64,000 bases of DNA from Alphaproteobacteria bacterium (GCA_964291215.2 OZ219791.1:3040001-3104000); one strand, 5' to 3'. Shown: positions 925 through 60,600, numbered from the stretch's first letter. Notes: generated by a model not told the origin, from the sequence alone. A program made the numbers and translations.

Positions 925-1343
925 TCGCCTGTCGCTGATGTGGCAACGGAAATGCTTGCGATCAAAAGCGGAGTGCACCTCAAAGACCGGAGCGGCAGCA
1001 ATGCCACGATTGCACCGGCGAACGGAAAGAAAGTTCGCTCCTCGAGCCCATGCTATCCAATTGATGTAGCGTCGGTGTGTAGTTCAGGTGAAGCACAAAG
1101 AAGGTATCTACTCACCCCTAGTTGGGTTCTGATTGGTCGTGGTGCTCGTTGATGATGTCTGCGGCTTTTCCGTCGAGGGCGATCTGGGTGGCGACGAGTG
1201 GGTTGTAGCCGAGTGCGGCCATAGAGGTGAGGTAGCTTGAGCCCCGGCACCATGCTTTTGCGTGGAGCGGAAGCATCCGGACACCTTGACCTTTGCCATC
1301 CTGATCTTCTGTTCTCCGGCATTGTTGGTGAAGCTGACATCGG

Positions 1344-2851
1344 GTGCGCCAGGCAAACTGGTGGAATGTGGCCGGGTGCAAGTCCCGAGAGAGGCTAATT
1401 TCTCCGTGAACCATGCGTCGCCAGGCGAAGCGTTGGGGAGCGGCAGGCCAGGCTATTGAGCCACGAGATGCTTTGAAACCGGAGTGCCGAGGTCGTGGCC
1501 GAAGGCAACGAGCCGCGTTGGTGAGGGGGGCTCCGCGGGGTCCGAGAACCAGGGCACGCGCCGAAGCAGGGACCTGGGAGGTCTTGCCCCTCTGTCGTGG
1601 AGGGGCCGCAGAGGAAAGGAACTAATCCGTAAACCGATGATGAACGAGAAGTCAGATTCGGCCATAGTACCGCTGAAGGCGGCGAACAAGGGTTCTTCGG
1701 AGCCTGCGGAGTTGTTGGAGGGAAGGGCAATGCGGTTGGCCCGCGCCGCGCGCAGAAGCGGGGGTCACAGGCGGCTGAACGCAGGTAGCGAAGAGGAACC
1801 CGGAAGAGCGTCTTTACTCCACCACGTGATGGTCGACGTTCTGCACGATGCGTTCCATTCCTTGAGGAAGGACGCGGCGGCGGGGCGTTGTGTGGCAAGC
1901 GTACGCGGAGGGTGTGGAACTGCCTGCACGCCCGTGTGCACAGGGGTGCGTACCGGGCGCCTCCAGGGTTTACATACCCAAGGAGGATGGAGGGCAACTT
2001 GCCTCGGACAAGATTCTTCAGCGGGCGGTGTGATTCTGGTGCCGCGAAACGGAGTTCCTCGGTTCCGGCCGGGGCGCATCATGCGCCGTCACGGTGGAAC
2101 GGCGGAAGGTCAACTGGATCGTTGACGCCCCTTCGACAACCGCGACCATCTGGTCGCGATGCTCGGGAAACGGATCGGGGGGTCTGATCATCAAGTGACG
2201 CCGGCGTCATGGAAGGGACCGACTGGCAAGGGAACACCGCAAGGGGCGGCGCCTTGCGAACCTGCACTACGTACGACTGGTTCCAGAACCACTGGCGCAA
2301 GCGGATGGCTGACACGATCATTATGCGGACGACTTCGTGTGCGGCTTTCAGCATCTGGGCGGCGCTGAGACCTTGGGGAGAGACTGGCCCACTTGAACTG
2401 CACCCGGAAAATCATCGAGTTCGGTCGGTTTGCCAGAGCGAACCGCCGGAAGCGTGGACAAGACGTTCGACTTCCTCGGCATGACGCACTTCTGCGAACA
2501 GACGAGGAAAGGCAGGTTCAGGGTCGGTCGCAAACGGGCACCCTGCGGCGGATCAAGGAGGCCTTACGCAGGCGGTGGCACGATAACCGGCACGAAACGG
2601 CCAAGTGGTGAGTTATCAACGGCTGCTACTACGCCGTTCCAGGAAGCAGCCTGCAGAAGTTCATACACCAATGCAAACAGCTGCGTGCCCTTCGGCGACG
2701 CTCCCAAAAGGACTTCACCGGGGACGTAGACACCCTCACCGCTGCCCACTGAGCCAGCATCCGTGGCCAAACCAGCGCCTTGTCGTCAGGGGAGGAGCGA
2801 ACAGCGCACGTCCGGTTCTGTGCGGGGGGTAACCCGGTTCCCTACCGCGAT
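1344..2851 (+). mobile_element. Group II intron (class D/E-like) with degenerate RT/maturase ORF, inserted antisense in the IS66 transposase
   Basis: 5' GTGCG at 1344; 3' DV/DVI-like ...gcacgtccggttctgtgcgggggg...ccctaccgcgAT at 2851. RT fragments EKSDSAIVP, LLHHV, YIPKEDG, GTPQG, (Y)ADD, LHPE, FDFLGMTHFC. Removing the intron restores transposase LRFTDD-PDVSF. Confidence 0.9.
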
Positions 2852-3884
2852 GGTCGTCTGTGAAGCGCAGGTTCTCGTGTTTCACGAGACGTTCGTGCAG
2901 GTTGTGCGCGTCGGACTTGCGTCCACGTTTTCCTTTCGTCGGGATGTCGGGCAGTTCCTTGGCGCCCTGATGGTGCGGTAGCGCCCGGCGTCGTTCAGGG
3001 TCTTGGATGCGCTCTTGTTGATCTTGTGGCAGGGAGCAGGCTCTTCATCAGTCGCGCGGTAGCCTCGACGACAAAGGTCAATTCGCGCAGCAGGTGGCTG
3101 CCGCACAGCTGGTGGTTACACTGGCCCATGTACGAGGCCCAGCAGTCGTGGACCAGGACGCCCTTGTAGCGCGGGATGATGCCGATCTCTTGCCTCCCGG
3201 CCGCGCTTGCGGTGCGGGAACTTGCACGTCAGGGTCCCACGACATGAAGCCACTTACTGTTGATCCGAAATCGTCGACATCGGGCGTTGCAGGAGGTGCG
3301 CCACGGCAGCCTCCTCCCATGACGCATCGTGAAAGCATAGCCGAGGCCTCGGAGAGCTTGATGCGGGAGATCGCCTGCACGAGCGCGACGGCACGGCGCA
3401 GGGACAGCATCTGGGCGACCAACAGGTTGATGACGAGGGCCTGGATGCCGATACCGTACTGCACGGGATGTTGTCGGGGAACCGGCCCCGGGCCTTGCAC
3501 TTCGGGCATTCCTCGGCGCGGCGCTCGACGACCTCGAACACGATGTCGTGCGGCGTTCCCGATCGACGGGGCCGTCGATGTCAGCGCCGCAGGCGTCGCA
3601 GGCCGCGACCGTCTCCTCGACGATGGTCTTGCGCAGGTTGTCGCCCATCTGCCGGTTCGGCTTCGGGCCGTTGCTCCCGGCACGCTCTTGTCCGTCTGTG
3701 ACGGCGGCAGACCGGAGTTCCGGCTCGTGCGTAGTCTTCTCCAGAAGGACGACGATGAGGATGTCGAGCAGGATGACGAAGACGCGGATCACGGCCTCTT
3801 CCGCCACCTTGCCGGCCGCACGCAGCGCCGCGATCCGGGTCTTGGCCGCTTCGAACTCCTCGCGCGCCGCGTTCACCGTCGCCA

Positions 3885-4094
3885 TCACCCGGCCTCGACG
3901 GTCATGATCGTCGCGAGCATCGCCTGGCGCTCGCCCGGCGGCATCTTCCGGTACTCCGCCGCTCGGCCTTGCGCTTCATCAGCGCGCCGCCTCCGATGGC
4001 ACAGCCCGTTCGTCGCCTTCGATCCAAAGTAGCTCACTGCCGGTCCCCGTCGTTCTCGATTACCACCACTAAACGAATCGGCCTGCAGTGTCAA
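3885..4094 (-). pseudogene. Internally deleted Dam/D12-class DNA adenine methyltransferase remnant (IS66 passenger)
   Basis: SYFGSKATNGLC N-terminus fused to YRKMPPGERQAMLATIMTVEAG C-terminus; homologous to the longer copy at 35788-36130 that retains DPPY. Confidence 0.65.
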
Positions 4095-4287
4095 ATCTCC
4101 ACGAAAACCCGTTCATTACTCTACCCCGACATCAAGCCGGAACCAGGGGGTGAGCAGTTACGAAACGGGAACCTATTGAACTTCATGTCAGGTGTGGCAG
4201 TAGCAAAATCTTCCTTTGCTTTTGCTACACAGAGAATGAAGCGATCCGGCATGCGTTGGCACATCGCCATGCCAAACTCACGCCCGC

Positions 4288-6903
4288 TTATACCCTCTGT
4301 TCTCCCCTGAGTTTGATCAGGAGTTGATCGCGAATTTCCTCTCGCACGTCATATGCAGCGGTTGCCGCGACTTCGAGTGTGACAGCGATTGCGAATGAGA
4401 TCTCCAAGTCGGGGTCGAGTCCACCCCCTGAGGCATCCCGACATTGAACCCGGATCGGAAGCGTTGCTTCGTCGTCATAGTCTGGGACGCGGACACGGTT
4501 GTGCACGAGGCGGCGGGACCAAGCAGTGCCCCGCTTGATGAGAGCCACGGCAGGGGGCTCGGACTTCATCGCGAGGTTCCAGTGTTTGTCCTCAGCGTCG
4601 TCTTGAAGCACATCACCATCTGCGGCAATGGCTTCCAGAGCAGCTAGGCGATACTTGGCTCGCGCCGATTCCACGGGCGAAAACCATGCCAAGGTAACCA
4701 GCATCGACCGGTGAACCCTATCGCCGGAAAGAGACGAGGGGAGCGGCATGTCGAAAATCGTCCCCTGATCCTTTCGTACCCGACCAAGGCCAATCAGGGT
4801 CACTCCGTGAAGCGGAGCCTCGCGCATGAGTTCGGCATCCAGGAAGCCATATCCGAAGTGACGGGCAACCTCCTCTGCGGCTTGCTGGAAGCGTCTTCTT
4901 TGGGCCGCATTTTCGATGGCGTAGAGTTCCTTCGCGGCTTCGGGCCATCTGCTGGCGTTGATCGCCAATGCCCGTGTCAGCAACGCGAGATCATTGCGGG
5001 AAAGTTCTATCCCTTCGTAGGGACCGCCCTCTTCAGTGAGCATAGCGGCTGCATTGAGCAGTGACCTCGTTACAAGAGCGGCGGCGCAACTGGTTCCTCG
5101 GGAGCGAGATTGGTGTGATACACCGATGCCGGCTGTCGCGACAGTCAATCCGGTGCGCACACTCCGAGGAACGATTCGTAATCTCAGACCATCGCCGGCC
5201 GGAACTGCTTGTACTTCCTGATGCCCTCCAATGCCGATTAGATCCGGCTTTATGATGCGAAACGGGCCGAGGCCCAATGCACTGGATATTGCAGGAAGGG
5301 TGTCGCCGTCGGCCTGTACCTCGACCACTCCTGGAGCGACGGCCATGGCGGCCGGCCTCAGATCGAGAGAGGCGGCGCCGACCGTAAGAACGTTTAGAGC
5401 CTCGCTCGGCGCCAGGAGCGTGCGTTCGTAACGGTGCTGCCGTTGGGCAGCACGGACATGTTTTCGACATTCTAGCAGGGACAAGCTCTCAAATCCGCTT
5501 ACGGTCATGTCAGGTATGTGAATATCCCACTGCACGTTGCCGGCAGAGACGACAAAAAGGACTCCCGTCTCGCTCGACCACCAGTCGAGCAGGCGTGCCA
5601 GTGAACTGATGCGGCCGGTGAAATGCGAACCGTGGACTCCTATCGAGAAATTCACGACAAACGCGTCCGGGACTAGAGGATTGTCGCCAAGGAATGCGCG
5701 CTGAAGGGCGGTATGAACGAGGTCCACAAAGAGGCGGTCATCCGGAGAGATAGCCCCATCTTCGGTGTCGACCAACAGAGGAATGGCTAGCAGGCGACTG
5801 TCGAGGACAGGGGACCCGTCGGATTCGAGATCACCCCTCAGAATTAGCGATGCCATCGCGGTGGCGTGGCGCCTGGTAACGACTGGGGATCGATCGACCA
5901 AATCGTGCACATCTTCAATGGCAACTCCACCATCAAGGCTGCGGTGACCGGCGATCGGCGTACCATCGAGGAGCAGAGCTCGGAAAGGGCTGGTGGGGTC
6001 GAAGTTCTCGAGATTCTCCAAATTAACGTCTGAAGGCTGAGAATGCGCAGGCAGAGACTGCGCGATGGTTTGAGGTAAAACGAACTGAAGACCGTCGAGT
6101 GTCGCGAGTCCATCCGGTGCAGACGGGTTGTCGAGCATGGCACGCACGGTGCCAGCAGCGAGTCCAACAAGCATAGCATCGTACACGAACCTGTCCTCGT
6201 GAATAGCGCTTCGGTGGATGACGTGGCCGCCCAGAGCGGCGACCTTTGCTTCGGTTTCTCTCCGCCATTGGCCAAGTTTGTCCAAGCTTTGCGTCGGCCA
6301 ATGTTCAAGCTCAAGTTTTACTTGGGCGTCATTGTCGAACGGAAGCCGGTTCTCCAGCTCAGCACGATAATCGGCAGACAGGCGGTCTTCCGGTCCCCAA
6401 GGACGTAACTCGGCAAGCATGTCGAAGAGGCGCCACCAAGGGGCATATCCGTGCTCAGCATCGCGATCCTTCTGATATGTGCGCCAAAGCTTAAGAACCC
6501 GATCCAAGGCTTCCTGGGTAGGCATGGTTGCATAGAGGATTGGGGAGACGGTGCCTTGATGGTCGGCGATCAAGTCATCCGGCAGATCATAGTCATCGTC
6601 CAGTTCAATTTCGGAGAGCACCTCAAGGCCGACCAACCGGGCTGCGCGGGCAAAGTTGCCGATCGGCACCGCTGTGACGAATACGAGGGCACGTTCGGGC
6701 GCGATGCCAAATGGATCACGCCGCAGTTCAAGTGCTGCATCGTCACGAGCGAGCACGCCTTCGAGGCGCTCGAATTCCTGACGAAACCGTTCTCCTTGCT
6801 GACGACGCCCAATTCCTCGAGGCCGTGGGAACCGAGCCGGTGCACCTGTCATCCTGCGTGCGGGACGCGAATCAGGAAGGCGCAAGATCGGTCGGTCGGT
6901 CAT
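4288..6903 (-). CDS. S8 (subtilisin-like) peptidase, IetS-like
   Basis: 871 aa intact ORF; triad motifs LLDGTPI, HATAMAS, GTSCAA, plus VSAGN; overlaps upstream AAA ATPase. Confidence 0.85.
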   Translation of the reverse strand: MTDRPILRLPDSRPARRMTGAPARFPRPRGIGRRQQGERFRQEFERLEGVLARDDAALELRRDPFGIAPERALVFVTAVPIGNFARAARLVGLEVLSEIELDDDYDLPDDLIADHQGTVSPILYATMPTQEALDRVLKLWRTYQKDRDAEHGYAPWWRLFDMLAELRPWGPEDRLSADYRAELENRLPFDNDAQVKLELEHWPTQSLDKLGQWRRETEAKVAALGGHVIHRSAIHEDRFVYDAMLVGLAAGTVRAMLDNPSAPDGLATLDGLQFVLPQTIAQSLPAHSQPSDVNLENLENFDPTSPFRALLLDGTPIAGHRSLDGGVAIEDVHDLVDRSPVVTRRHATAMASLILRGDLESDGSPVLDSRLLAIPLLVDTEDGAISPDDRLFVDLVHTALQRAFLGDNPLVPDAFVVNFSIGVHGSHFTGRISSLARLLDWWSSETGVLFVVSAGNVQWDIHIPDMTVSGFESLSLLECRKHVRAAQRQHRYERTLLAPSEALNVLTVGAASLDLRPAAMAVAPGVVEVQADGDTLPAISSALGLGPFRIIKPDLIGIGGHQEVQAVPAGDGLRLRIVPRSVRTGLTVATAGIGVSHQSRSRGTSCAAALVTRSLLNAAAMLTEEGGPYEGIELSRNDLALLTRALAINASRWPEAAKELYAIENAAQRRRFQQAAEEVARHFGYGFLDAELMREAPLHGVTLIGLGRVRKDQGTIFDMPLPSSLSGDRVHRSMLVTLAWFSPVESARAKYRLAALEAIAADGDVLQDDAEDKHWNLAMKSEPPAVALIKRGTAWSRRLVHNRVRVPDYDDEATLPIRVQCRDASGGGLDPDLEISFAIAVTLEVAATAAYDVREEIRDQLLIKLRGEQRV

Positions 6904-7894
6904 TTGTACTGTATCGACACTGCTGGTCGTTTAGGTGGTTCTTGGCCTTCACTCGGTCCTTTACCAGGGTTCGGAAAGTCAGGCTGCCTTGAGCTAGTGC
7001 GTAGCGGCGATGAAGATCGAGAAAGAAATCCTCTGCATCGGAAAAATTCTTCGGCGAAACGGCTAAACGCAATCTCTTGGCCGTGTAACCCGATTTCTCT
7101 CTGAACTCCCGGAGCCTGACCGCAAAATACTCCGTCATCTGGTCTTCCGTCGGTTTCCCCAACTCAAGCTTGATTTCAAATCGTCTCCATGTAGCTCGGT
7201 CGAGTAACTCTGGGTGATTGGTCGCAGCAACGAGAACACAATAGGAAGGGAGGTCATCAAGTTGCAGGAGAAGCGTTGTCACGACCCGCTTGATTTCGCC
7301 AGTTTCGTGAAGATCACCACGTTCCTTGCCAATGGCGTCAAATTCATCGAAGAACAGGACACAGGGTTCGGTTCGCACATAATCGAAGAGGCGCCTTAGC
7401 CTCTGAGCTGTTTCGCCCAGATAGCTAGTCACCACTGCGTCGTATCGAATTGCAAATAGCGGGAGAGCCAGTTCGAATGCAAGACTCTCTGCAAGAGAAG
7501 TCTTGCCGTTTCCTGGTGGGCCGACAAGCAGGACGCGATGACGCGGTTCTAGGCCGTGGGCACGCAGAACTTCGGCTCGTGCCTGTTCCTCGATCAGTTC
7601 GTGACACGCATTACGGATAGCCTTCGCGAGAAACAGGCTGGTCAGCGGCCGCTCCGGGTGGCGTCGTTGGATTCCCCCAGAGCCGTCCCGGACACGCAAG
7701 GTACCCGGCCTAGTCGAGCCTGGTCCCGTAGGCCTTGTAGGTGCAGAAAGCGCCCGGTCGATTCGTTCCGCGACGACGGTATGCTTTTTCGCACGTTCGT
7801 TCGCGGCGATCGCCTCGGCAGCAACACGGGCGGACTCCTGATCCCCGCTAACGCTGGCCTTGACAAGATCGACGATGAGATCACTTCGGGCCAT
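6872..7894 (-). CDS. AAA+ ATPase, IetA-like
   Basis: MARSDL start; Walker A GPPGNGKT, Walker B LFFDEFD, SYLGETA, GEIKRVV, AATNHPELLD. Confidence 0.9.
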   Translation of the reverse strand: MARSDLIVDLVKASVSGDQESARVAAEAIAANERAKKHTVVAERIDRALSAPTRPTGPGSTRPGTLRVRDGSGGIQRRHPERPLTSLFLAKAIRNACHELIEEQARAEVLRAHGLEPRHRVLLVGPPGNGKTSLAESLAFELALPLFAIRYDAVVTSYLGETAQRLRRLFDYVRTEPCVLFFDEFDAIGKERGDLHETGEIKRVVTTLLLQLDDLPSYCVLVAATNHPELLDRATWRRFEIKLELGKPTEDQMTEYFAVRLREFREKSGYTAKRLRLAVSPKNFSDAEDFFLDLHRRYALAQGSLTFRTLVKDRVKAKNHLNDQQCRYSTNDRPTDLAPS

Positions 7895-7902
7895 CAAGGA
7901 TC

Positions 7903-8361: not shown

Positions 8362-9723
8362 CTACAACCAGTCCAGACTCAGTCGTCGTCCTTGGGGCAC
8401 CCCTGCACCGCCTTCCGACTCCGCGCCATCCGACCGCGCACACTCCTTGGGTTTCAGCCGAAGGGGCTCTCGATCATCCTCCAGCGTAGCTGATCCTCCG
8501 AGGTTTGAGGACGAAATGTCCACCAGGACATCGCTGTGCTCCGTCTTGTCCGGCAGCGGCGACACCTCCGCCCTGTATCCCATGGCGCGCGCGATGACGG
8601 CCGCGGCCTGCGCGGCGGCGTCCCGCAGCGCGCCGTCGTCGAGATGGGCGTAGATCGCGGTGGTCTCGCGCTTGCGGTGTCCGAGCAGCCGTCCGACCGT
8701 GGTGAGCCCGACGCCGTTCATGACGCCCTGCGAGGCCCAGGTGTGGCGGCAGTCGTGGATGCGAAGGCCCGGAAGCCCGGCTTTATCCCGTATGCCGACC
8801 CAGAAGGTGTAGAGCCTTGCCGATGTGAGGGTCTCGGGGAACACCCGCTCCCGGCCATCCGGTCGCGGCAGCGCCTCGACCAGTCCTGCCGCTTCGGGTC
8901 CGAGCCAGATGGTGCGCGGTCCGGTCTTGGAGTCTTCGATGCGCGCGCTCGCGCCGTCTCCGGCCAGCTCTCCGATCTCATCCCACCTGAGGTTGATGAC
9001 TTCGGAGAGCCGCGCCCCGGTGAGCGTCAACAGCCGGATGGCCGCCACCGGCCAGGGGTGTTCCTCCCGGTGACGGTCGAGCACCGCGCCGAGACGCTCC
9101 AGCTCTTCGCGGCTGAGGTAACGCGCGACAGGCTTGCGGGGGTTCTTCACGATGTTGGCGCAGGCATCGGGGACATGCTCGCCGATGTCGCCCCACTGCC
9201 GGGCCGTCCCGAGCATGGCGCGGAGGATCTCGAAGGCGCGGTTGGCGGCGCCGGGCCGGTCCGCGCTGGCGGCGTCGAACCATGCCGAGACCCGCGCATG
9301 GTCGATGGCGTCGAGCCGGAGCCTGCCGAAGTGGGGCATCAGGCGGTTCTTCATGTAGCTATCGAAGGTCTCGAGCGAGGACGGCTTCCAGCGGTGTTTC
9401 CGCCGCGAGCGGTAACGGGCGGCGAAGTCCCGGAACAGCGGCGCCTTCTCCTTGCGCGGCGGCGTCACGTCCTCGCCGCCCCACAGGCGGGCGAGCACGG
9501 CCGCGCCTTCCCGGCGGGCCGCGTCGAGAGGCAGTTCGGGGAAGCGCCCGAGGGTGATCTTGCGCATGCGTCCCCGGACGCGGGTCTGGACGATCCGGGA
9601 CCGGACGCCGGAGGGCTGCACCCTGACCCCGAAATGCGCCAGCAGATTGTCCCACAGGGTGTATTCCCGTTCCGCCGGCTTGGCGACGGCCTTCACGGTG
9701 AGCCGGTGCCTGCGGCCGCTCAT
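8362..9723 (-). CDS. Tyrosine recombinase/integrase with N-terminal arm-binding (DUF4102-like) domain
   Basis: YTLWD..HFGVRVQPSG..ITLGRFP; LTGARLSEV, DSKTG, RIHDCRHTWAS, LLGH..TTAIYAH; open from ATG 9723. Confidence 0.85.
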   Translation of the reverse strand: MSGRRHRLTVKAVAKPAEREYTLWDNLLAHFGVRVQPSGVRSRIVQTRVRGRMRKITLGRFPELPLDAARREGAAVLARLWGGEDVTPPRKEKAPLFRDFAARYRSRRKHRWKPSSLETFDSYMKNRLMPHFGRLRLDAIDHARVSAWFDAASADRPGAANRAFEILRAMLGTARQWGDIGEHVPDACANIVKNPRKPVARYLSREELERLGAVLDRHREEHPWPVAAIRLLTLTGARLSEVINLRWDEIGELAGDGASARIEDSKTGPRTIWLGPEAAGLVEALPRPDGRERVFPETLTSARLYTFWVGIRDKAGLPGLRIHDCRHTWASQGVMNGVGLTTVGRLLGHRKRETTAIYAHLDDGALRDAAAQAAAVIARAMGYRAEVSPLPDKTEHSDVLVDISSSNLGGSATLEDDREPLRLKPKECARSDGAESEGGAGVPQGRRLSLDWL

Positions 9724-10820
9724 CGCCCGCTCTCCTTCCCGGTCATGGCCTCGTGGACGATGCCGGAGATACGCCCGGCCGCCTCGCGGACATGCTCGTC
9801 GGCGAGATGGGCGTAGCGTTCGGTGGAGGCGGTATCGGCATGGCCGAGCAGGCGGCCGACGGTGTAGAGGTCGAGGCCGCTCATCACGGCATGGGAGGCG
9901 AAGGTATGCCGGCAGTCGTGGATGCGCACATCGTCCAGCCCGGCGAGACCGCGCAGCTTCTGCCAGCGCAGGCCGAGGTCGGTCATCGGGCCGTCGCCCT
10001 TCCCGTTCGGGAAGACGAAGCGTCCCTCGCGCGGCAGGCCATTCAGGACGGCCCGCGCGGGCGGCGGAAGCTGGAGCGCCCGGTCTTGGAGTCCGGCAAC
10101 ACCGCGCGGGTGTCCCGTATCCAGTCCCATTGCAGGCCGGCGATCTCGAACGACCGGGCGCCGGTGAACAGCAGCAGGCGGCCTGCCGGTCCTCCGCATG
10201 GTCGAGCACTAAGCCGAGGCGCTTCAACTCGTCCAGGGACAGGAACCGCTCGCGCGGCGCCGTCCTGTAGCGCCGCATGTTGCGGCAGGGGTTGGAGCCC
10301 TGCGGGCGAAGGTCACAGAGTTCCGCCTGCCGCATCATCACCGAGAGCACCGGCAGGGTCCGGTTGGCGCTGCCGGGGGTTCCGCTGAGGGAATCGAACC
10401 AGCGCCGCACATCGGCGCGGTCGATCTTCGCGACGGGCATCGCGCCGAAGAAGGGCAGGAGGCGGCGCTCGATCAGATGGGCGTTGGCCTTCCTCGTGGA
10501 GGGTTTCCAGCGCCGCCCCTGGCGGCGCATGAAGTCGGCCGCGAAGTCGGCGAACAGCGGCCCGGTCTCGCGGTCGGCCCCGGCTTCGGCGATGGCGGCA
10601 ATGGCCTTCTCCCTCGCCTCGGCGGCGGTCATGTCGTCGGTCGTGCCGAGGATCGCCCTGGGCGCGCCGAACTGGCGTGAGGTCTGGACGAAGAAGGTCT
10701 TCGTTCCGGCGACGGTGAAGCCGAAGGCGGGCAGGTCCCTGACGGTCAGGCCGTATCGTCCGGGTTTCTTCTCCCTGAAGGTGCGGCGGACCGTCCGCTC
10801 GTTGACGGGGGCATGGATGC
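9720..10820 (-). pseudogene. Second tyrosine integrase, frameshifted by small deletions
   Basis: N-part (RRWKPSTRK, SANRTLPVLS, RERFLSLDEL) and C-part (RIHDCRHTFASHA, LLGHADTASTERYAH) lie in different frames; ATGA overlap with the downstream integrase; 5' end approximate. Confidence 0.8.
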
Positions 10821-11104
10821 GCGTGTCTCCGTTGTCTGTTCCCTCGGGCACCGTCCGTCCCGGGGGAACGGAACGGCGCTCCTGAACGGACAACGCGACC
10901 CGCGCGCGAAACCGCGGCCAGAGGCCGGGCCAGGCCCAACCGTCTGTCACGCAACGGAAAACTGCCGACCGATGCAGGCCGGCCGGGCCTCGCTCTCTGC
11001 ATCAGGGATGCGTCGGGTGTGTGAACCGAGGCCGCCCCGGGCGGTGTGCGCATACGAAAACGGGCCACGCCGGAGCGACGACATGGCCCGTCGAGGTGCT
11101 GCGG

Positions 11105-11203: not shown

Positions 11204-11247
11204 CTTGCTGCGACAGCAGCGTTGCTGGGCGCCTGAAGTACCGGTGA

Positions 11248-11454
11248 GTGAGCGAAGGAGACACCCTCATGGCCCTCACCCCTGCCGAGAGCGCGATCGG
11301 GACTGTATCGACAGTCTCCCTCTACGACACGACTTGGGGAGAATGTCTGCAGATCATCGTCGAGGTCGACATCAAGGAGATCGAACCGCCTTGGGACACC
11401 TGGAACCCGGACGGTCACGTGCCCGGGGACGGCAAGGTAGCCGCGTTCACGTGA
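11248..11454 (+). CDS. Small hypothetical protein
   Basis: AAGGAG before ATG near 11269; protein-like composition (CLQIIVEVDIKEIEPPWDTW). Confidence 0.35.
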   Translation: MSEGDTLMALTPAESAIGTVSTVSLYDTTWGECLQIIVEVDIKEIEPPWDTWNPDGHVPGDGKVAAFT

Positions 11455-11655
11455 CCAATGGACGGCAACCCGCCGCCGGGACCACAAGCTTCATGTCGCC
11501 TCGCTCGCAGAGCAAACCCCACACCGCTTGTGGACAACCACAGAAAACATCACCACAGACACCCGCAAAAACCTTGCCAAGAAACATGGTAACTGCTCAC
11601 CCCCTGGTTCCGGCATGATGTCGGGGTAGAGCAAAGAACGGGTTTTCGTGGAGAT

Positions 11656-11907
11656 TTGACACTGAAGGCCGATTCGTTTAGTGGTGGTCATCGAGAACGA
11701 CGGGGACCGCCAGTGAGCTATTTTGGATCGAAGGCGACGAGCGGGCTGTGCCAGCTGCTTCCGGGGCTCCAGCCTCCGCATGATCTGTATGTGGAAACGC
11801 ATCTCGGAGGCGGCGCGCTGATGAAGCGCAAGGCGGAGTACCGGAAGATGCCGCCGAGCGAGCGCCAGGCGATGCTCGCGACGATCATGACCGTCGAGGC
11901 CGGGTGA
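11656..11907 (+). pseudogene. Internally deleted DNA adenine methyltransferase remnant (IS66 passenger)
   Basis: SYFGSKATSGLCQ..PPHDLYVETHLGGGALMKRK (Dam-like motif I region) fused to the C-terminus; TGATG overlap with the transposase start. Confidence 0.7.
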
Positions 11908-12923
11908 TGGCGACGGGCGGCGCGCGAGGAGTTCGAAGCGGCCAAGGCGCTGCGTGCGGCCGGCAAGGTGCCGAAAGAGGCCGTGATCCGCGTCTTCGTC
12001 ATCCTGCTCGACATCCTCATCGTCGTCCTTCTGGAGAAGACTACGCACGAGCCGGAACTCCGGTCTGCCGCCGTCACAGACGGACAAGAGCGTGCCGGGA
12101 GCAACGGCCCGAAGCCGAACCGGCAGATGGGCGACAACCTGCGCAAGACCATCGTCGAGGAGACGGTCGCGGCCTGCGACGCCTGCGGCGCTGACATCGA
12201 CGGCCCCGTCGATCGGGAGCGCCGCACGACATCGTGTTCGAGGTCGTCGAGCGCCGCGCCGAGGAATGCCCGAAGTGCAAGGCCCGGGGCCGGTTCCCCG
12301 ACAACATCCCGTGCAGTACGGTATCGGCATCCAGGCCCTCGTCATCAACCTGTTGGTCGCCCAGATGCTGTCCCTGCGCCGTGCCGTCGCGCTCGTGCAG
12401 GCGATCTCCCGCATCAAGCTCTCCGAGGCCTCGGCTATGCTTTCACGATGCGTCATGGGAGGAGGCCGCCGTGGCGCACCTCCTGCAACGCCCGATGTCG
12501 ACGATTTCGGATCAACAGTAAGTGGCTTCATGTCGTGGGACCCTGACGTGCAAGTTCCCGCACCGCAAGCGCGGCCGGGAGGCAAGAGATCGGCATCATC
12601 CCGCGCTACAAGGGCGTCCTGGTCCACGACTGCTGGGCCTCGTACATGGGCCAGTGTAGCCACCAGCTGTGCGGCAGCCACCTGCTGCGCGAATTGACCT
12701 TTGTCGTCGAGGCTACCGCGCGACTGATGAAGAGCCTGCTCCCTGCCACAAGATCAACAAGAGCGCATCCAAGACCCTGAACGACGCCGGGCGCTACCGC
12801 ACCATCAGGGCGCCAAGGAACTGCCCGACATCCCGACGAAAGGAAAACGTGGACGCAAGTCCGACGCGCACAACCTGCACGAACGTCTCGTGAAACACGA
12901 GAACCTGCGCTTCACAGACGACC

Positions 12924-14448
12924 ATCGCGGTAGGGAACCGGGTTACCCCCCGCACAGAACCGGACGTGCGCTGTTCGCTCCTCCCCTGACGACAAGGCGC
13001 TGGTTTGGCCACGGATGCTGGCTCAGTGGGCAGCGGCGAGGGTGTCTATGTCCTCGGTGAAGTCCTTTTGGGAGCGTCGCCGAAGGGCACGCAGCTGTTT
13101 GCATTGGTGTATGAACTTCTGCAGGCTGCTTCCTGGAACGGCGTAGTAGCAGCCGTTGATAACTCACCACTTGGCCGTTTCGTGCCGGTTATCGTGCCAC
13201 CGCCTGCGTAAGGCCTCCTTGATCCGCCGCAGGGTGCCCGTTTGCGACCGACCCTGAACCTGCCTTTCCTCGTCTGTTCGCAGAAGTGCGTCATGCCGAG
13301 GAAGTCGAACGTCTTGCCCTGTCCACGTTTCCGGCGGTTCGCTCTGGCAAACCGACCGAACTCGATGATTTTCCGGGTGCAGTTCAAGTGGGCCAGTCTC
13401 TCCCCAAGGTCTCAGCGCCGCCCAGATGCTGAAAGCCGCACACGAAGTCGTCCGCATAGCGGACAATGATCGTGTCAGCCATCCGCTTGCGCCAGTGGTT
13501 CTGGAACCAGTCGTACGTAGTGCAGGTTCGCAAGGCATGGCGCCGCCCCTTGCGGTGTTCCCTTGCCAGTCGGTCCCTTCCATGACGCCGGCGTCACTTG
13601 ATGATCAGACCCCCCGATCCGTTTCCCGAGCATCGCGACCAGATGGTCGCGGTTGTCGAAGGGGCGTCAACGATCCAGTTGACCTTCCGCCGTTCCACCG
13701 TGACGGCGCATGATGCGCCCCGGCCGGAACCGAGGAACTCCGTTTCGCGGCACCAGAATCACACCGCCCGCTGAAGAATCTTGTCCGAGGCAAGTTGCCC
13801 TCCATCCTCCTTGGGTATGTAAACCCTGGAGGCGCCCGGTACGCACCCCTGTGCACACGGGCGTGCAGGCAGTTCCACACCCTCCGCGTACGCTTGCCAC
13901 ACAACGCCCCGCCGCCGCGTCCTTCCTCAAGGAATGGAACGCATCGTGCAGAACGTCGACCATCACGTGGTGGAGTAAAGACGCTCTTCCGGGTTCCTCT
14001 TCGCTACCTGCGTTCAGCCGCCTGTGACCCCCGCTTCTGCGCGCGGCGCGGGCCAACCGCATTGCCCTTCCCTCCAGCAACTCCGCAGGCTCCGAAGAAC
14101 CCTTGTTCGCCGCCTTCAACGGTACTATGGCCGGATCTGACTTCTCGTTCATCATCGGTTTATGGAATAGTTCCTTTCCTCTGCGGCCCCTCCACGACAG
14201 AGGGGCGATTGAAAGACCTCCCAGGTCCCTGCTTCGGCCATGGTTCTCGGACCCCGCGGAGCCCCCCTCACCAACGCGGCTCGTTGCCTTCGGCCACGAC
14301 CTCGGCACTCCGGTTTCAAAGCATCTCGTGGCTCAATAGCCTGGCCTGCCGCTCCCCAACGCTTCGCCTGGCGACGCATGGTTCACGGAGAAATTAGCCT
14401 CTCTCGGGACTTGCACCCGGCCACATTCCACCAGTTTGCCTGGCGCAC
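12924..14448 (-). mobile_element. Group II intron copy B, degenerate RT
   Basis: Same GTGCG...ccgcgAT boundaries and same insertion site as copy A; retains IIVRYADD at about 13449-13472. Confidence 0.9.
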
Positions 14449-14546
14449 CCGATGTCAGCTTCACCAACAATGCCGGAGAACAGAAGATCAGGATGGCAAA
14501 GGTCAAGGTGTCCGGATGCTTCCGCACCATGCTCCACGCGGCATGG

Positions 14547-15837
14547 GGTACTGTAACTTGATGTCTGGAAATTTGTCTGAGGTTTGCGCTTTGAGGCGTT
14601 TCACTGGGGGGCTAGCCCCCCAGTGAAACGCGGCGCCATCGTGCTATCCCATGGAGTTGAAAAACCTTCATGGAGGAAGCGAATGGAGCTGCGACACACT
14701 ACGACGATTGAGGCCGTTTTGGAACATCTGATCGCAAACGGAGCAACGGATCTGGGGCGGGTCTTTGGTCAGCTCTTCGAGCTTGCGATGCAAATCGAGC
14801 GCGAGCAGTACTTGAAAGCGGGCCACTACGAACGGACACTGGAGCGACAGGGCTATGCCAACGGCTATAAGCCCAAACGGATCGACACCCCCGTCGGGAC
14901 TGTTGCCATTCAGGTGCCAAAGACGGCCGGTCACGGGGACGATCCGTTCTATCCCCAGTCGCTTGAACGCGGCCAGCGATCTTCTCGCGCCGTGGCCGTA
15001 GCCGAGATGTACATCAAGGGTGTTTCCACGCGGCAGGATGTAATGCGCGAGTTCGGGAGCCTGTCCTCTTCTCAGGTCAGCCGGGCCACCGAGTTGCTCG
15101 ATGAAGAACTCGCCGCGCAACCGGCCCCTGATGAAATACCTGATCCTGGATGCGCGCTACGAAAAAGCCCGCCATGACGGCGTTGTGCGCGATGTCGCGG
15201 TACTCTCGGCCATTGGAATAGGGGCTGCAGGCACGTTCTGGGGCTCTCTGTGGCGCTCTCCGAGGCCGAGGTCCATTGGAGAGCCTTCCTGGAAAGCTTG
15301 CTAGCCCTGCATGGTACGACCTTCATCGTCTCGGATGACCATGCCGGGTTGAAAGCAGCACGACGCGCGGTGCTGGGCGCGGCGACATGGCAGCGCTGCC
15401 AGTTCCACCTAGCGCAAAACGCCGTGCAGCACGCACCAAACAACGACATCAGGAAACGTATTGGAAAACAGCTCGGAGCCATGCGTCCTCACTCCAAACC
15501 GCCGAGGCTGAACTGGGCGCCCTCGTGGCCAGCTATCGCGACAAGCATCCAAGCTTCGCAGACTGGCTGGAAAAGAATGCGGGGCTCGCTGTCTTCACCT
15601 TGCCCGATGCTCACCGCAAGCGCATGCGAACCTCGAACGGCATCGAGCGACCGATCCAGCAAGAGCTCAAGCGGCGCACCTCCAAAGTCAGGGTCTTTCC
15701 GAACCTCGCCTCGTTGGAGCGCCTCTCAACCGCGGTCCTCATCGACGAAAAATGGGAAACCGAAACCAAGATCAAATGGGAACAGCTCGATGACTGAGAG
15801 CTTCACGACAATTTCCAGACATCAGGTTGCGTAATCC
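14547..15837 (+). mobile_element. IS256-family element, transposase pseudogene
   Basis: IRs ggtactgtaacttgatgtctggaaatt and aatttccagacatcaggttgcgtaatcc; motifs YANGYKPK, EMYIKGVSTR, YLILDARYEK, SDDHAGL, WQRCQFH, RTSNGIER spread over several frames. Confidence 0.9.
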
Positions 15838-16589
15838 GCCTCTGCCGCAATCCCCTGCTGGCCAAGGATCGGAAGCGCCAGGAACTGCTCGAGGCCACCG
15901 AGGCTCGCACCGATTGCCGCAGCGACGCGACAAGCGTCGCCTCAAGGGTGCCGGGAAGATCGGGGAGCGGAAGGTCATCGGCAGGATGGCGAAGCACTTC
16001 ACGTGGTCCATCGACGACGACGGTGTCTTCACCTATGGGCGTGATGAGGCTGCCATCGCCGCCGAGGCTCCTCTACGTGATCCGCCTGCCGCAGAGCGCA
16101 CTCGACGGCACGGTGCGCGCCTACAAGCGGTTGAGTTCGGTGGAACGGGCCTTCCGCAGCCTCAAGGACCTGAAGGTCCGTCCCGTCTACCCGAACCCCG
16201 AGTCCGCGTCTTCCTGTGCATGCTCGCCTACTACATGGCACATGCGACTGAAGCCCATGCTGTTCGACGACGAGGATGCCGAAGGCGGCCGTCCGTCGTG
16301 GCGCCGGCAGAAGTCTCGGCGAGCGCCCGGGCCAAGGCGACAACGAAGAGGACGCCCGGAGGGGGCACAGCTTCCGCACCCTCATCGGCGATCTTGCCAC
16401 CCGCAACACCGTGGCGCCCCGCCTTGCGGGCGCCGAACCCTTCCAGGTCACCACACGGCCCACGCCGCTCCAGAGAAGGGCATTCAAGCTCCTGGGCGTG
16501 AAGCCATGGTGTGCCGAGACCGCTGAAATGTATCGAATGTCATTTCTATCAGATACTTAGGTCTGATCGGCTCTGGAACTTCGGCCTAG
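15838..16589 (+). mobile_element. IS1634-family transposase 3' remnant
   Basis: CRNPLLA, MAKHF, YKRLSSVERAFRSLK, VFLCMLAYY, HSFRTLIGDLAT, TRPTPLQRRAFKLLGV in shifting frames; end ...ggaacttcggcctag. Confidence 0.8.
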
Positions 16590-16693
16590 TGTACCCTGGG
16601 CGTGAAGCCCTGGTGTACCCAGATCGCTGAAATTTATTGAATGTGATTTCTATCAGGCACTTACGTCTGATCGGCTCTGGAACTTCGGCTTAG
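16491..16693 (+). repeat. Diverged tandem duplication of the ~99-bp IS1634 right end
   Basis: 16491-16589 versus 16595-16693: both run cctgggcgtgaagcc...gtctgatcggctctggaacttcggc(c/t)tag. Confidence 0.85.
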
Positions 16694-16694
16694 C

Positions 16695-17209: not shown

Positions 17210-17230
17210 TTGATCGTTCTGTTTGTTCGC

Positions 17231-20824: not shown

Positions 20825-21007
20825 CGGCACCTCCTTCGCGGATTGTCCCGCCGTCGCGGCTGACGCGTTCCGGCCGCCGTCCGGCGGTTTGCGGATTATC
20901 CTGCCGCCGGTTGCGGAGTGTCAAGATCGCGAGCATGGACGCTCGACCCGTCACCGATCGCCGTGGGCCAGCTTTGCGCCGGTGCCCAGTGTTTCAGCGG
21001 CGCCTCA

Positions 21008-24369: not shown

Positions 24370-24370
24370 T

Positions 24371-35456: not shown

Positions 35457-35458
35457 GG

Positions 35459-39252: not shown

Positions 39253-39253
39253 G

Positions 39254-40120: not shown

Positions 40121-40252
40121 GGATGCGCCCCCAGGTTAGCGATTTTCCCAAACCGCAAAATTTTTCTGATAGTGGAATTTGATTTGCAGTCGGCAGATTC
40201 CCCTGTATTCTAAACGGATGCTGAAGCAGCGCAAACGATGGAGGACGAAGGG

Positions 40253-41692: not shown

Positions 41693-41761
41693 GCGTCGGT
41701 ACGCAGGAATCGGCTCTGGAGGTACCCTTGGGCGCCTCCGGATTTGCCGGACCGGGCGGAC

Positions 41762-43608: not shown

Positions 43609-43614
43609 CCGGTC

Positions 43615-44685
43615 ATGGCCCGCATAGAACTCAACAGCCTGCGCAAGGAATTCGGCCGTTCCGTGGTCGCGGTACGGGACCTCGAATTGACGATCGAGGA
43701 CGGCGAGTTCCTGGTCATGGTTGGCCCCTCAGGGTGCGGCAAGACCACCACGCTCCGCATGATCGCGGGTTTCGAAGATCCCACGGCGGGCGACATCCTC
43801 ATGAACGGCACGGTGGTCAACGATCTCGAACCCAGCGAGCGCGATCTCGGCATGGTGTTCCAGAGCCATGCGCTGTTTCCGCACAAGACGGTCGCCCAGA
43901 ACATCGAGTTCGGGCCGCGCATGCAGAAGATTGCAGTCGATGAGCGGCGGCGGCGGGTGCGCGAAGTCGCAGAAATGGTGCGCATCACCCATCTTCTGGA
44001 CAAGATGCCGGGACAGTGTTCAGGCGGCGAGTCGCAGCGCGTCGCGTTGGCGCGGACACTGATCAACCACCCGGACACCTTCCTGCTAGACGAGCCGCTT
44101 TCGAGCCTTGATGCGAAGCTGCGCCGCGAGATGCGCGCCGAGATCGACCGCCTGCACCAGGAACTGGGCAAGACTTTTGTCTATGTGACCCACGATCAGG
44201 AAGAGGCGATGACGCTCGCCGACCGCATCGTCGTGATGCGTGGCGGCGAGGTTGAACAGGTGGGCACGCCGCTCGAAATCTACAGCGACCCGGTCTCCTA
44301 CTTTGTTGCAGATTTCTTCGGCAGCCCGTCCATGAACCTCATTCCGGGAACCCTGCGAAGGGACGGGGATCGCGCGGTCTTCGAAGGCCAGCGGATCTCG
44401 CTGACGCTCCCGGAAGGGTTTGCCGGGCTGGAGCCGGGTGACGTGACCGTCGGCATCCGCCCCGAACATCTCTCTGTCGGAGGGTCGGGAGAACTGAGCC
44501 AGAAGATCCATCTTGTCGAGCCCCTGGGCAAGGACACGCTGCTCTACTTCGATTATGGTGGCGAGCAGGATCTGATCGCTGTCGTCAACGGTGTCTCGGC
44601 CCATCGGACGAACACCGAGGTCGCAATCGGCTTCACCCCCGACCATCTCTTTCTGTTCGGCGCGGACGGGCGTCGCATTCGCTGA
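43615..44685 (+). CDS. ABC transporter ATP-binding protein (MalK-like)
   Basis: GPSGCGKTT, CSGGESQRVAL, LLDEPLS, YVTHDQEEAM, GIRPEH. Confidence 0.92.
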   Translation: MARIELNSLRKEFGRSVVAVRDLELTIEDGEFLVMVGPSGCGKTTTLRMIAGFEDPTAGDILMNGTVVNDLEPSERDLGMVFQSHALFPHKTVAQNIEFGPRMQKIAVDERRRRVREVAEMVRITHLLDKMPGQCSGGESQRVALARTLINHPDTFLLDEPLSSLDAKLRREMRAEIDRLHQELGKTFVYVTHDQEEAMTLADRIVVMRGGEVEQVGTPLEIYSDPVSYFVADFFGSPSMNLIPGTLRRDGDRAVFEGQRISLTLPEGFAGLEPGDVTVGIRPEHLSVGGSGELSQKIHLVEPLGKDTLLYFDYGGEQDLIAVVNGVSAHRTNTEVAIGFTPDHLFLFGADGRRIR

Positions 44686-44839
44686 TTCCCGCCGCTCCGC
44701 GAATGGCGGACAATCCTGCCCATCCGTTGGCCCGGCGTAGCAAATCATGCCTCGGGCCGAACAGCCGGCACGCCGGTGCCAGTATTGATCACCATGTCCG
44801 GAGCTGTAGGATCGGGGCGAACCGCACGGGCCTTACGCG

Positions 44840-57672: not shown

Positions 57673-57673
57673 G

Positions 57674-60600
57674 TCAGGCCCAGTCGGAGGCGCGGCCTGC
57701 GTCCGGGACCATGGCGTCTTCGTCCCGCGTCGAAGGAACTTCGCCCGACGGGGAATGCGGTTCCGGCTCGTCATGTGCCGCGGCCGCCGGCGTTTCCTCC
57801 GCTTCTCCCGGAAGCGGCGCCAGCTCCAGTTCGCGCTGAACCGGCCCGGGGTGGGATATGTCTTCCGGCGACGGCAGGCCCGCCCGGTCCGGCGGCTCTG
57901 GGACCGTCATCTCTTCCTTCCCGAGGCGTGCCGCAGTGAACGCCTCGGTCGCAGCTTCCGTCCCGTCCTCCTTGCGCGGCACGAACCGCTTGGCCGCCTT
58001 CGGCCGGGCGGTGTGTTTCAGGCGGATGGCGGCGACCGGGAACGGGGCGGGGAACTTGAGATAGCCCGCGAGGTTCTCGAGCCGCATGATCTCCGAGGGC
58101 TGCGCCAGGGCGCGCAGCTCGCGCCGCGGCGTGAGGCTCACCCCGTCGCGAATGGTGTTGGCGCCGTAGGAAAAGCCCTCGGTGACTTCCTTGATCTCGC
58201 TGCGTCCGAGACTGTCGGCCGACCATTGCGCGGTGTCCCGGTCCGGCGCGGCGAGCACGACGCGCGTGCCGCAGAGCCCGGAGACAGTCTCCACGCCGTT
58301 GCGGCCGTAGAGGTCGCGCAAGGCCGAGGCGACCTGGACGCCGAGCACGAAGCAGCCTCCGAACTGTCGGCTTTCGGCAAGCCCCGGCTGGAGGGATGGC
58401 ACCTGGTGGAGCGTCGGCAACTCGTCGAAAATCACCCAGATGCGCCGCCCGTCATCCTGGGCGAGCGAGAGCATGGCGTTGACCGCGATCTCCAGCCATG
58501 TCGAGATCAGCCCCCGCAGGCTGGCGTGCTGGTCGCCGCGCGAGGTCAGGAACAGGAACCCGTCCTCCTTCTCCCGGGATATCCACTCGCGGATCGAGAA
58601 GGGCCTGCCCTCGTCGGGCAGGAACTCGAAGGCGGCGAGATTGGCGGTGAGCATGGCGCGCACCGAGAGCGCGGTCTTCGGGTTCTCGGGATCGACTGCG
58701 CGACCGTGCCCTCCATGGCCTCGGCGAGCGCGGTGAGGTCGGTCTTGAGCAGATGGTCGACCAAGACCCTGTTGCGCGTCTCGCCCCTGCCGCGCAGTAC
58801 GCCGGCGCCGTTGGAGAAGAGCTGGCGCGCGGCGGTGACCCAGAACGGGTCGACCGTGTCCTTCTGCTGGGGGATCAGCGCGGCGGCCATCATGTCGAAG
58901 TCGCGGGGGTTGCGGGCTTCCAGGAACGGCGACCAGCGCGGCGCGCGGGCGTCCAGCGGGTTCATCAGCACGTTGCGGTCGCGGTTGAAGAAGGACCGGG
59001 TGTAGGAGCCCATCTTGTCGTAGATCACGCAGCGCTCGCCGCGGGCGCGGATCTGGGAGACGAGATCGGAGATCAGCACCGTCTTGCCGGAGCCGGTGGT
59101 GCCCGAGACGATGGTGTGCGCTGGGTTTCGGTGCGCTCCGGATACGGGATGCCGGCGATCGACTAGTGTCTTATCATTCATCAAATGTCGTATAAAGGCG
59201 TTTGAGTTTCACGCGGGCATCGTCGGTGGTGAACTGCCAATCCACCTTGGCCTGAATGCGGTCGCCTGCCAGGCGGCGACTTTCCGGCGTAACACCTCGA
59301 TGCAGTCGATGCGGCGGTTCAGGCACTGGCGGATCATGACGTTGAGTTCGACCACGTTCAGCCAACTGCCGTGCTTGGGGGTGTAGACGAACTCGAAGCG
59401 GCCCCACAAGGCCTCGTCCGGCGGGTAGGCCTCATAGAAGGCGCCGGGGAGTGTTGAGATTGTCCATCACCAAGGTGATGGTGATAGCATCCTGGTAGCG
59501 CTCGGCGATGTCGGCCAGGAACTGCGCCCAGTCGATCTTGCGCTCGGTTACCTTGGTCATGCGCTTGCCGGCCAGGGGTTCCGTGAAGACGTTGCAGGTA
59601 CCGCAACGTCGATACTCGTAGTCGTTACGCCCGTCCCGGCGCCATGGCGATCGGTTGCCGTGTCTCGCCGATCAGGGGGCGTTTCGTCCATGCAGACCAC
59701 GGGGAAGGCGGCGGGGCGGCGATAGACATCGAGCACCTTCGCCGCGGCGAAGTCGGCGTTCCCTCGGGGATGAATTACCCACCCAACCCGCTGCCATGGC
59801 TTGAGGCAGTTTTTTTAGAACACGCCGCACCGTCTCGTGTGATATGGCGTAACCAAGCTCGACAACGCGGTCGGCCAGCAGCCGCAACGACCATTGCGTG
59901 TAACCCTCGGGCGGTTCACCACAACTCAGAGCCACCAAGCGCGCCTCGAAGGCGCCGGTGGCTTTTCGCATGTAGGTAGGACGGCGCCGGCCACCCAATG
60001 CCGCCTCCAGCCCCTCTTCAACGAAACGCTTCTTCACCCGGTCTACTTTGCGCATGCTGATGCGCAGAATCTCGGCAATGACCTTCCCGGTCATCTGGCA
60101 TTCATTGAACGCGCCCTCGTCGCAGTTGAGCAGGGCGTTGATTACCTTTTGCGACAGGTGCGAGCCCTTGGTCGTGATCTCCGAAAGTTCTGCCCGTTCG
60201 TCCAGGGTCACCATGTAGCGTTTCATACTCCGACCTCCATCCCGAATGGACGGACAGTCTAGCACCAAATGTACGACATATCATTGCTGACATAACACTA
60301 GGGGCGGAGCCGCCTGCCGCCGGGCAGCCGCGCGAGGACGCGGTGATGTGCAGGCCGGATCTGGCGGCGCAGTTCGGCGGCGGTGACCATCTCGGCGCCC
60401 CTGATGCGCTTCTGGCGGCCGAGTTGGGCGCTGCGCCACCAGAATGCGGCGAGGAAGAGGACGATCAGCCCGGCGCCGGACGCGGCCCCCAGCCCGGCGC
60501 TGACGAACAGCTCGTCCCTGATGCGCTCCCGCGCCTCGCGGGCCGGGGCGGCGATGTTGCGGATCGCGAGCACGCGGCGCGTGCCGTCGGCGAAGCGGAC

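Follow-up and report, generated by a model that had tools for sequence, protein, structure and literature searches.

In a 64,000-nucleotide (nt) stretch of DNA from an alphaproteobacterium (GCA_964291215.2 OZ219791.1:3040001-3104000; the whole stretch is called "the window" below), an initial annotation made from the sequence alone had noted that multicopy mobile elements carry many short deletions while single-copy host genes are intact. Among these elements are two inverted copies, A and B, of an IS66-family insertion sequence, each split by a group II intron. The question raised by this locus is whether a process exists in this organism that shortens repeated DNA and, if so, by which route the deletions accumulate. 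We find that the deletion process is real, acts genome-wide and is far from known bacterial decay; dead mobile elements in bacteria are usually lost through point mutation, frameshifts and large deletions. The process was nowhere described in a literature search that covered mostly open-access papers, supplements aside.

The genome holding the window (G000) comprises 6.15 Mb in two contigs, is 99% complete and is ∼35% repeated; its alphaproteobacterial placement is given by a two-piece transfer-messenger RNA and a 16S sequence 88.6% identical to those of Tistrella and rhizobia. The congeners compared with it were G001, its sister species (92% identity), G002, of the same genus (∼77% in uvrA), G003 and G004, together with a further genome of the order (G034). 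Contigs from three public runs were also used, all from one study, which is possibly the source study of the genome.

Short deletions in the window and across the genome

Positions 1001-4300 (copy A) were aligned with the reverse complement of 11501-14800 (copy B). The 2,871 nt aligned contain 26 substitutions and nine gaps (5-12 and 50 nt; Table 1), none of them of 1 nt, and the reciprocal short gaps amid few substitutions described initially were therefore recovered. The deletions had also been called copy-specific, which did not hold. When deletions were called per copy against a reference of pooled long alleles, built from 53 intron copies and 70 of the 167 IS66 copies, the four segments of the window together held 136 deletions of 5-7 nt, of which just one was private. 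Intron deletions seen only in A recur in 11 to 47 of the 53 copies, IS66 deletions seen only in B recur in 4 to 11 of the 70, and A and B hold a further 47 intron and 31 IS66 deletions in common, which are invisible in a pairwise alignment. The gaps claimed for a second IS256 piece were found as well. Host genes, reported as spared, had no 5-7-nt losses in the part of their coding sequence that was aligned with G001 (26,514 nt within the window), and the single-copy relaxase, reported as little hit, had none over the 920 nt comparable with its sole genomic homolog. Element names fared unevenly: IS256, ISAzo13, ISKra4, IS630, IetAS, relaxase and TraD were recovered in scans of window open reading frames (ORFs), and IS1634 and ISAs1 were not.

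An assembly or polishing artefact of the long-read genome can be discounted with near certainty. The confirming runs are from one study and are contigs rather than raw reads; however, the same gaps are present in contigs of all three runs (for example, 6 nt at 1554 and 5 nt at 3871), short-read contigs hold both alleles at the gap sites, neither near-identical young copies nor the genes flanking CRISPR show such gaps, and a second genome shows the size peak described next.

Across 278 family segments (1.60 Mb of aligned repeats), 11,915 deletions of 5-7 nt were counted, and 6.8% of this DNA is gone in pieces of 5-14 nt. Distinct events of 5, 6, 7 and 8 nt number 301, 601, 353 and 83, and near-private events of 5, 6 and 7 nt number 122, 183 and 111 versus seven of 4 nt. 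Sizes peak at 6 nt with a trough at 4 nt, and events of 5 and 7 nt make up half of the total. The microhomology noted initially stands as an enrichment and not as a requirement, since it is absent from 40% of the distinct 5-8-nt events: at least 3 nt occur in 279 of 1,338 (∼101 expected, a 2.7-fold enrichment), none in 530 (694 expected), and 0-1 nt in 845. Old copies are shortened by up to 15%: at the median, 282 of 1,894 nt are missing from the intron and 233 of 1,587 nt from the right part of IS66; per IS66 copy, the median is 29 short deletions versus 21 substitutions (162 copies).

That these events are deletions and not insertions follows from restored reading frames, an ISAzo13 alignment and the G001 outgroup. 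The pooled long alleles of the intron give a stop-free frame of 475 codons (386 in the best real copy), a rebuilt ISAzo13 half-transposase needs a single gap when aligned to its intact G003 counterpart, and G001 homologs retain the bases in 22 cases versus one (5,024 nt).

Dependence on copy number and lineage

When the 278 segments were binned by copy number, 5-7-nt gaps per substitution were 0.027 at two copies, 0.051 at 3-4, 0.092 at 5-9, 0.16 at 10-29, 0.23 at 30-79 and 0.32 at 80 or more. The load per substitution is 12-fold higher in the largest than in the smallest families, and 1-nt gaps are flat, at 0.75-1.3 per kb.

Single-copy DNA was compared between G000 and G001 over 0.49 Mb, excluding gaps with less than 85% flank identity. 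In non-coding DNA (48 kb), 24 losses of 5-7 nt were found in G000 versus one in G001, and half of those in G000 show at least 3 nt of microhomology; in coding DNA (438 kb), in-frame 6-nt losses numbered 22 versus one. Thirty-one broken single-copy genes, some of them perhaps mis-called, had three losses in 32.6 kb. The comparison of multicopy with single-copy DNA suggested in the initial annotation came out as 0.5 per kb in single-copy non-coding DNA versus 10 per kb in each copy of families with at least 30 members, and elements of the window reach 32 per kb. A weak genome-wide source of 5-7-nt deletions is thus specific to the G000 lineage, and large families bear 20-60 times more. Of the earlier choice between repeat targeting and a genome-wide mutational spectrum, both a weak source in single-copy DNA and a strong dependence on repetition are retained, and what falls away is independent mis-repair of each copy.

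Among relatives, G002 has a 5-6-nt peak (0.042 per substitution, 73 pairs), and G001 has intact transposase and reverse transcriptase (RT) genes. In G004 the peak is absent from the 26 pairs available (0.0044 per substitution). G034 has one 6-nt gap among 45 distinct gaps in small families (0.0033 per substitution, 18 pairs only), and G003 offers a single pair, with 48 substitutions and no gaps. No repeat family of close similarity was found between G000 and the G002 DNA examined. This patchy occurrence among congeners indicates a gained or lost gene; with the trait present in one species and not in its sister at 92% identity, a comparison of six genomes should reveal such a gene. In G002, a run of 1.9-kb repeats, nested or in tandem, was observed to carry 5-6-nt gaps (L069:5790-17799).

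Sharing of deletions and how they may spread

In an alignment of 162 IS66 copies, identical precise deletions recur at fixed sites in a mosaic, and all 162 deletion sets differ. Given this mosaic at shared fixed sites, most of the load has probably been copied and not newly made. All four combinations are present in ∼75% of deletion pairs lying more than 20 nt apart, which, together with the distinct deletion sets, means that sharing is not tree-like. The frequency spectrum of 37 segments with at least 25 copies shows a high-frequency excess: 168 of 342 deletion sites are in more than half of the copies and 38 are single. Among single-nucleotide polymorphisms (SNPs) in the same segments, 54% of alleles are single (2,306 of 4,258), and deletions of 1-4 nt are also mostly single (68 of 103, made up of 49 of 72 for 1 nt and 19 of 31 for 2-4 nt).

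Few SNPs are transferred along with the deletions. In 148 divergent segments, 480 of 652 deletions lie exactly at sites of the main group, versus 8.7 expected, and the density of a segment's own SNPs is 0.056 at 4-6 nt from the junction versus 0.065 far off; own SNPs within 12 nt on both sides are retained in 86 of 409 cases. Judged by a simulated-deletion control, the real loss of diversity is limited to 6 nt or less, with 1-3 nt depleted beyond alignment artefact. One junction end has a weak preference (roughly C/G, then not C, then pyrimidine, then C/G; 0.94 bit) that holds on held-out events and on 72 G002 events and is faint on 19 single-copy events. A signal of 0.94 bit is too weak for local sequence alone to choose the sites. 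Physical distance between copies has a near-zero link to sharing (rho 0.07, 858 pairs).

For old multicopy elements, we put at about 0.5 the probability that 5-7-nt deletions arise rarely anywhere and are then copied one way, from shortened to intact copies, by a putative loop-clipping activity. A lineage-specific nuclease/ligase would occasionally remove 6 ± 1 nt, about once for every 12-20 substitutions in repeats. RecA would pair a shortened with an intact copy, and the extra bases would loop out. Loops of 4 nt or less would be handled by mismatch repair, which in bacteria is efficient on loops up to ∼4 nt according to the accessible text of PMC2504288; loops of 5 nt or more, being poorly seen, would be cut out and sealed. 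The donor would act as a splint only, hence the recipient's own SNPs would stay. A deletion born in one copy could then serve as template for all, the load would grow with copy number and time, and every old transposase and intron reading frame would end up broken.

A number of points weigh against this reading. Loops of 5-8 nt are still repaired, with lower efficiency (PMC2504288, same portion), and the direction of transfer is drawn from frequency spectra and not from observed transfer events. The dose trend is inflated both by two-copy families, which include functional duplicates, and by conversion, which lets large families appear younger than they are. A young IS66 family of 12 copies (0-8 mismatches) has no 5-7-nt deletion at all, and its four older relatives have several; either time or seeds are needed in addition to repetition, or the process no longer runs. 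Deletion sharing follows SNP similarity (rho 0.61 among 36 close intron copies, 0.32 among 70 IS66 copies), so that some of the sharing stems from descent. Exchange extends to SNPs: of the SNP alleles that differ between A and B, 23 of 31 are present in other copies, which indicates ordinary short conversion alongside. In intact divergent copies, SNPs are enriched inside the bases that would be deleted (276 in 3,033 nt, 0.091 versus ∼0.065, the counts not being independent), and the loop sequence therefore matters, beyond a pure splint model. High frequencies are also reached at 8-10 nt (10 of 30) and at 15 nt or more (5 of 8), and the searches of G000 for candidate enzymes described below gave no responsible enzyme. 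Note that the young 12-copy family (L147:16201-17217 and 11 other places) has an intact 340-codon frame in most of its copies.

A homing-like process, which we consider unlikely, would have a weakly specific nuclease cut intact sites; some cuts would be mis-sealed with loss of 5-7 nt and others repaired from another copy, and deleted alleles, being resistant, would spread. The motif scores of common, single and random sites (1.5, 0.59 and 0.23 bits), the apparently protective SNPs inside the segment and the commonness of larger deletions favour it. Repair of a break from a donor, however, co-transfers flanking SNPs over tens to hundreds of bases, whereas the footprint here is 6 nt or less, and no sweep of resistant SNP alleles was seen, no dedicated test having been made. 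Alternatively, with no copying involved, an enzyme aimed at mobile or multicopy DNA might excise the same 5-7 nt recurrently and independently in each copy, at sites set by sequence features beyond our motif. Deletions crossing lineages without their flanks, the variance of load among IS66 copies (22.7 versus 5.9 by chance) and the score that the G000-trained motif gives to the 72 G002 events (+34.7 versus −8 to −38 for shifted controls) are in line with such an enzyme. We nevertheless hold it to be improbable to a similar degree, as 0.94 bit cannot yield deletion in 90% of copies at one position and 0% at the next, neither hairpins nor methylation motifs are linked to the sites, and dependence on copy number among mobile families is strong.

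The deletions might also be untargeted, with a genome-wide mutator that deletes 6 ± 1 nt, and whose effects show where selection does not act, working together with unbiased gene conversion and transposition of damaged copies. This would account for the same size excess in single-copy DNA, for the shuffling of SNPs and for the link between sharing and SNP similarity; conversion among insertion sequence copies is reportedly known in Wolbachia and was counted in its favour. It is again doubtful, given the single-copy densities (0.5 per kb in non-coding DNA and three losses in 32.6 kb of broken genes) versus 10-32 per kb in repeats, and unbiased conversion cannot lift half of the 5-7-nt deletions above 50% while those of 1-4 nt stay mostly single. 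Much less probable than any of these is that the 6-nt-step backbone of a type III-B CRISPR (Cmr) complex makes the deletions, either by cutting and rejoining RNA that is then reverse-transcribed or by acting on DNA loops directly. Of the congeners, G000 and G002 carry Cas10/Cmr2 and Cmr3, and G001, G003 and G004 do not, matching the trait in five of five; Cmr3 is in three of 53 genomes of the order; and type III complexes cut RNA at 6-nt intervals, according to the part of PMC10499312 available. The third carrier, G034, has two Cmr3 genes but only the single 6-nt gap given above. Moreover, none of 111 G000 spacers matches the repeats, and the rejoining ligase RtcB is missing. The G000 Cas10 starts directly with its Cmr2 domain, which leaves no space for an HD nuclease; half of the events measure 5 or 7 nt; and other defence genes are also common to G000 and G002.

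Returning to one-way copying of shortened alleles, a tentative and rather unlikely extension is that a horizontally acquired nuclease-ligase in G000 and G002, absent from the sister species, excises 6 ± 1 nt from paired repeats and both seeds deletions and drives them through old families. It would constitute a self-spreading anti-repeat defence, and a short-deletion editor that uses a homolog as template without new synthesis.

The earlier suggestion to look for Ku, Argonaute, spacers against insertion sequences, or lost mismatch-repair or RecA genes turned up none of these; RecA, MutS and MutL have intact open frames in G000. The 99% complete G000 genome gave no match to Ku, NucS, topoisomerase IB, ligase-associated metallophosphoesterase, ATP-dependent ligase, RtcB or Vsr. 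No PIWI domain (PF02171) was found in G000, a search that short or remote Argonautes could escape, and, with no matching spacer either, targeting of repeats by Argonaute or CRISPR does not fit. The end-joining origin proposed initially fits poorly too, since non-homologous and microhomology-mediated end joining (MMEJ) are at odds with the lack of Ku and ATP-dependent ligase and with microhomology of at least 2 nt in a minority of events (63% have 0-1 nt). The G2L4 RT is reported to mediate MMEJ; no full-length RT domain was found in G000. A Pfam scan of 239 of 561 atypical single-copy G000 genes gave type III-B as the only lead, no repair gene was among 96 of 151 genes present in G001 and missing in G000 (0.96 of 5.0 Mb of G001), and plasmids gave no close intact IS66 or relaxase.

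Several candidates did not discriminate between genomes with and without the trait: RT, which is also in G001 and intact there; Cas1, in all five congeners; DUF4007/Ssp and DarT, in G001 too; and a helicase-exonuclease island (L144), missing from G002. Hairpin-loop removal was discarded (unpaired probability 0.48 at 298 sites versus 0.485 in controls, no flanking stems), as were links to methylation motifs (GANTC, GATC, CCWGG and GCWGC not enriched) and to the transcribed strand (no consistent orientation in three families). GGCC and GCGC were about two-fold enriched at sites, but the site windows were longer than the control windows.

Comparison with known systems

In ascomycete fungi, repeat-induced point mutation (RIP) converts C to T, with every copy hit independently of the others and within one sexual cycle. 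The analogy with RIP drawn initially holds for the outcome, as repeated DNA is disabled in proportion to repetition and single-copy genes are spared. It does not extend to the lesion, mainly short deletions and not C-to-T changes, to the deletions being common to copies or to the untouched young family. Vsr repair of Escherichia coli acts on T:G mismatches. Like it, the present process would be a directional conversion of one type of heteroduplex lesion with nearly no flanking transfer; unlike it, the lesion would be a loop, and Vsr was not found in G000. Eight Vsr matches were observed in G002 (L257, L259, L260 and five more places).

Deletion-biased nonallelic gene conversion is described in eukaryotes, with a bias of ∼3.4 to 1 across lengths, in the portion of PMC3280953 available. 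As far as that portion goes, the likeness is one-way transfer of deletions between paralogs, far above new mutation, such that neutral repeats shrink together. Here too, the same deletion is in paralogs beyond what descent gives (the four-combination pairs and the main-group sites above), and bias is towards the shorter allele, with polarity from restored frames and the outgroup. A co-converted flanking tract is lacking, however, own SNPs being present from 4-6 nt outwards, and the present case differs in being bacterial, in its 5-7-nt peak with a gap at 4 and in its restriction to some congeners. Large loop repair, which is MutS-independent, includes a loop-directed mode whose bacterial proteins were unidentified in 2008 (PMC2504288, accessible text); there, as proposed here, loops too large for mismatch repair are taken out. 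On that text, it handles loops as long as hundreds of nt, shows no peak at 6 nt and leaves the origin of size-locked deletions unexplained. In bacterial pseudogene decay and alternative end joining, deletion sizes are distributed as a power law on which multiples of 3 stand out (PMC6054270, in the part available). Deletion bias and some excess of 6-nt deletions and microhomology are common to both, but here 5 and 7 are raised as 6 is, 3 is not, and events are common to copies.

If the proposed route is true, it would be an undescribed bacterial way to wreck repeated DNA, reaching the outcome of fungal RIP by other chemistry. It would also help to trace the bacterial proteins of loop repair and might yield an enzyme for making short deletions precisely.

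Features of the window and other loci

The features of the window are collected in Table 1. IS66 copies number about 170-180 genome-wide, the family having been matched via an intact IS66 transposase of G001, and an intron-less junction of the IS66 element was found in the run contigs.

Table 1. Elements, deletions and control regions of the window (positions counted from its first nucleotide; "sites" and "deletions" refer to 5-7-nt losses unless a size is given)
Feature	Position	Strand	Evidence, copy number and load
IS66-family element, copy A; transposase on − strand, split by group II intron	1104-4161	−	A/B alignment; 25 deletions in 2852-4161, none private
Group II intron with broken RT, copy A	1343-2852	+	Rfam RF02005 at 1379-1550; 53 copies; 42 deletions, none private
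6-nt deletion in A versus B	1586		A/B alignment
5-nt deletion in A versus B	2251		A/B alignment
7-nt deletion in A versus B	2322		A/B alignment
5-nt deletion in A versus B	2459		A/B alignment
50-nt deletion in A versus B	3997		A/B alignment; carried by 6 of 70 copies
Tyrosine integrase region	8528-11045	−	∼4-5 copies; lightly hit, 6 sites, 2.4 per kb
Repeat fragment	11204-11588	.	∼62 copies; 9 sites, 23 per kb
Inverted copy B of IS66/intron element, truncated at 14532	11589-14532	+	A/B alignment; 26 + 43 deletions, 1 private
8-nt deletion in B versus A	11834		A/B alignment
5-nt deletion in B versus A	11916		A/B alignment
12-nt deletion in B versus A	11946		A/B alignment
Group II intron, copy B	12923-14449	−	Rfam RF02005 at 14242-14413
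6-nt deletion in B versus A	14238		A/B alignment; same loss in contigs of three runs (place 1554)
IS256 copy	14546-15850	+	about 90-105 copies; 9 sites
Repeat without family assignment in scans	15851-16694	.	∼25 copies; 24 sites, 28 per kb
ISAzo13 copy, low load	20998-22245	−	20 copies; 6 deletions versus median 13
Control: single-copy host genes (gidA-like, uvrA, others)	22233-34093	.	coding DNA without 5-7-nt loss
Repeat without family assignment in scans	34516-35448	.	∼44 copies; 28 sites, 30 per kb
Second IS256 piece	35449-35790	−	lacks 6, 5 and 6 nt at 35747, 35727 and 35498 versus first IS256; also two 1-nt gaps (338 nt aligned)
Control: single-copy host genes (gyrA, others)	36422-50446	.	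coding DNA without 5-7-nt loss
ISKra4 copy	50488-52022	+	∼4 copies; 4 sites, 2.6 per kb
IS630 copy	54080-55373	+	∼66 copies; 17 sites
Control: broken, essentially single-copy MobF relaxase and TraD	56142-59184	−	no 5-7-nt loss over the 920 nt with a homolog (76%)
IS630 copy	59100-60316	−	∼43 copies; 14 sites

A low-GC, IetAS-like ATPase-peptidase pair (4288-7897) and the integrase lie between the inverted IS66 copies; A and B are mutual best matches and, with the enclosed genes, possibly form a composite unit. Element ends may be partly spared, as the left end of IS66 (1104-1342) has four distinct 5-7-nt deletions among 70 copies and the far right end nearly none. Two tandem 99-nt repeats, 89% alike, end a repeat block at 16491-16693, and an RTX calcium-binding repeat gene with 27-nt repeats and a 684-codon open frame occupies 52016-54070.

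Elsewhere in G000, a hybrid CRISPR locus (L151:11478-13442 and L152:616-15716; C1 574-600 kb) combines a 96-repeat array, a Cas4-Cas1 fusion and type I-G genes with a CARF-HEPN-CARF nuclease and a type III-B Cmr module, whose 632-aa Cas10 starts at the Cmr2 domain. A type II-C Cas9 locus with a 17-repeat array is also present. In G002, a long array with a repeat similar to the type II-C one adjoins type III-B genes, and there is a second array type (L156:5981-10434 and L153-L155 for these loci of the two genomes); a 589-aa ORF with a DruA-like domain and a DDE transposase lies at a CRISPR array end (L155:4290-6056). Intact single-copy genes of defence type in G000 include DndB/DUF4007/cysteine desulfurase, DarT, SMODS, AGS_C, AAA_21 with DUF4276, and Schlafen-RecG (L120, L122, L110, L124, L143, L116 and L137).

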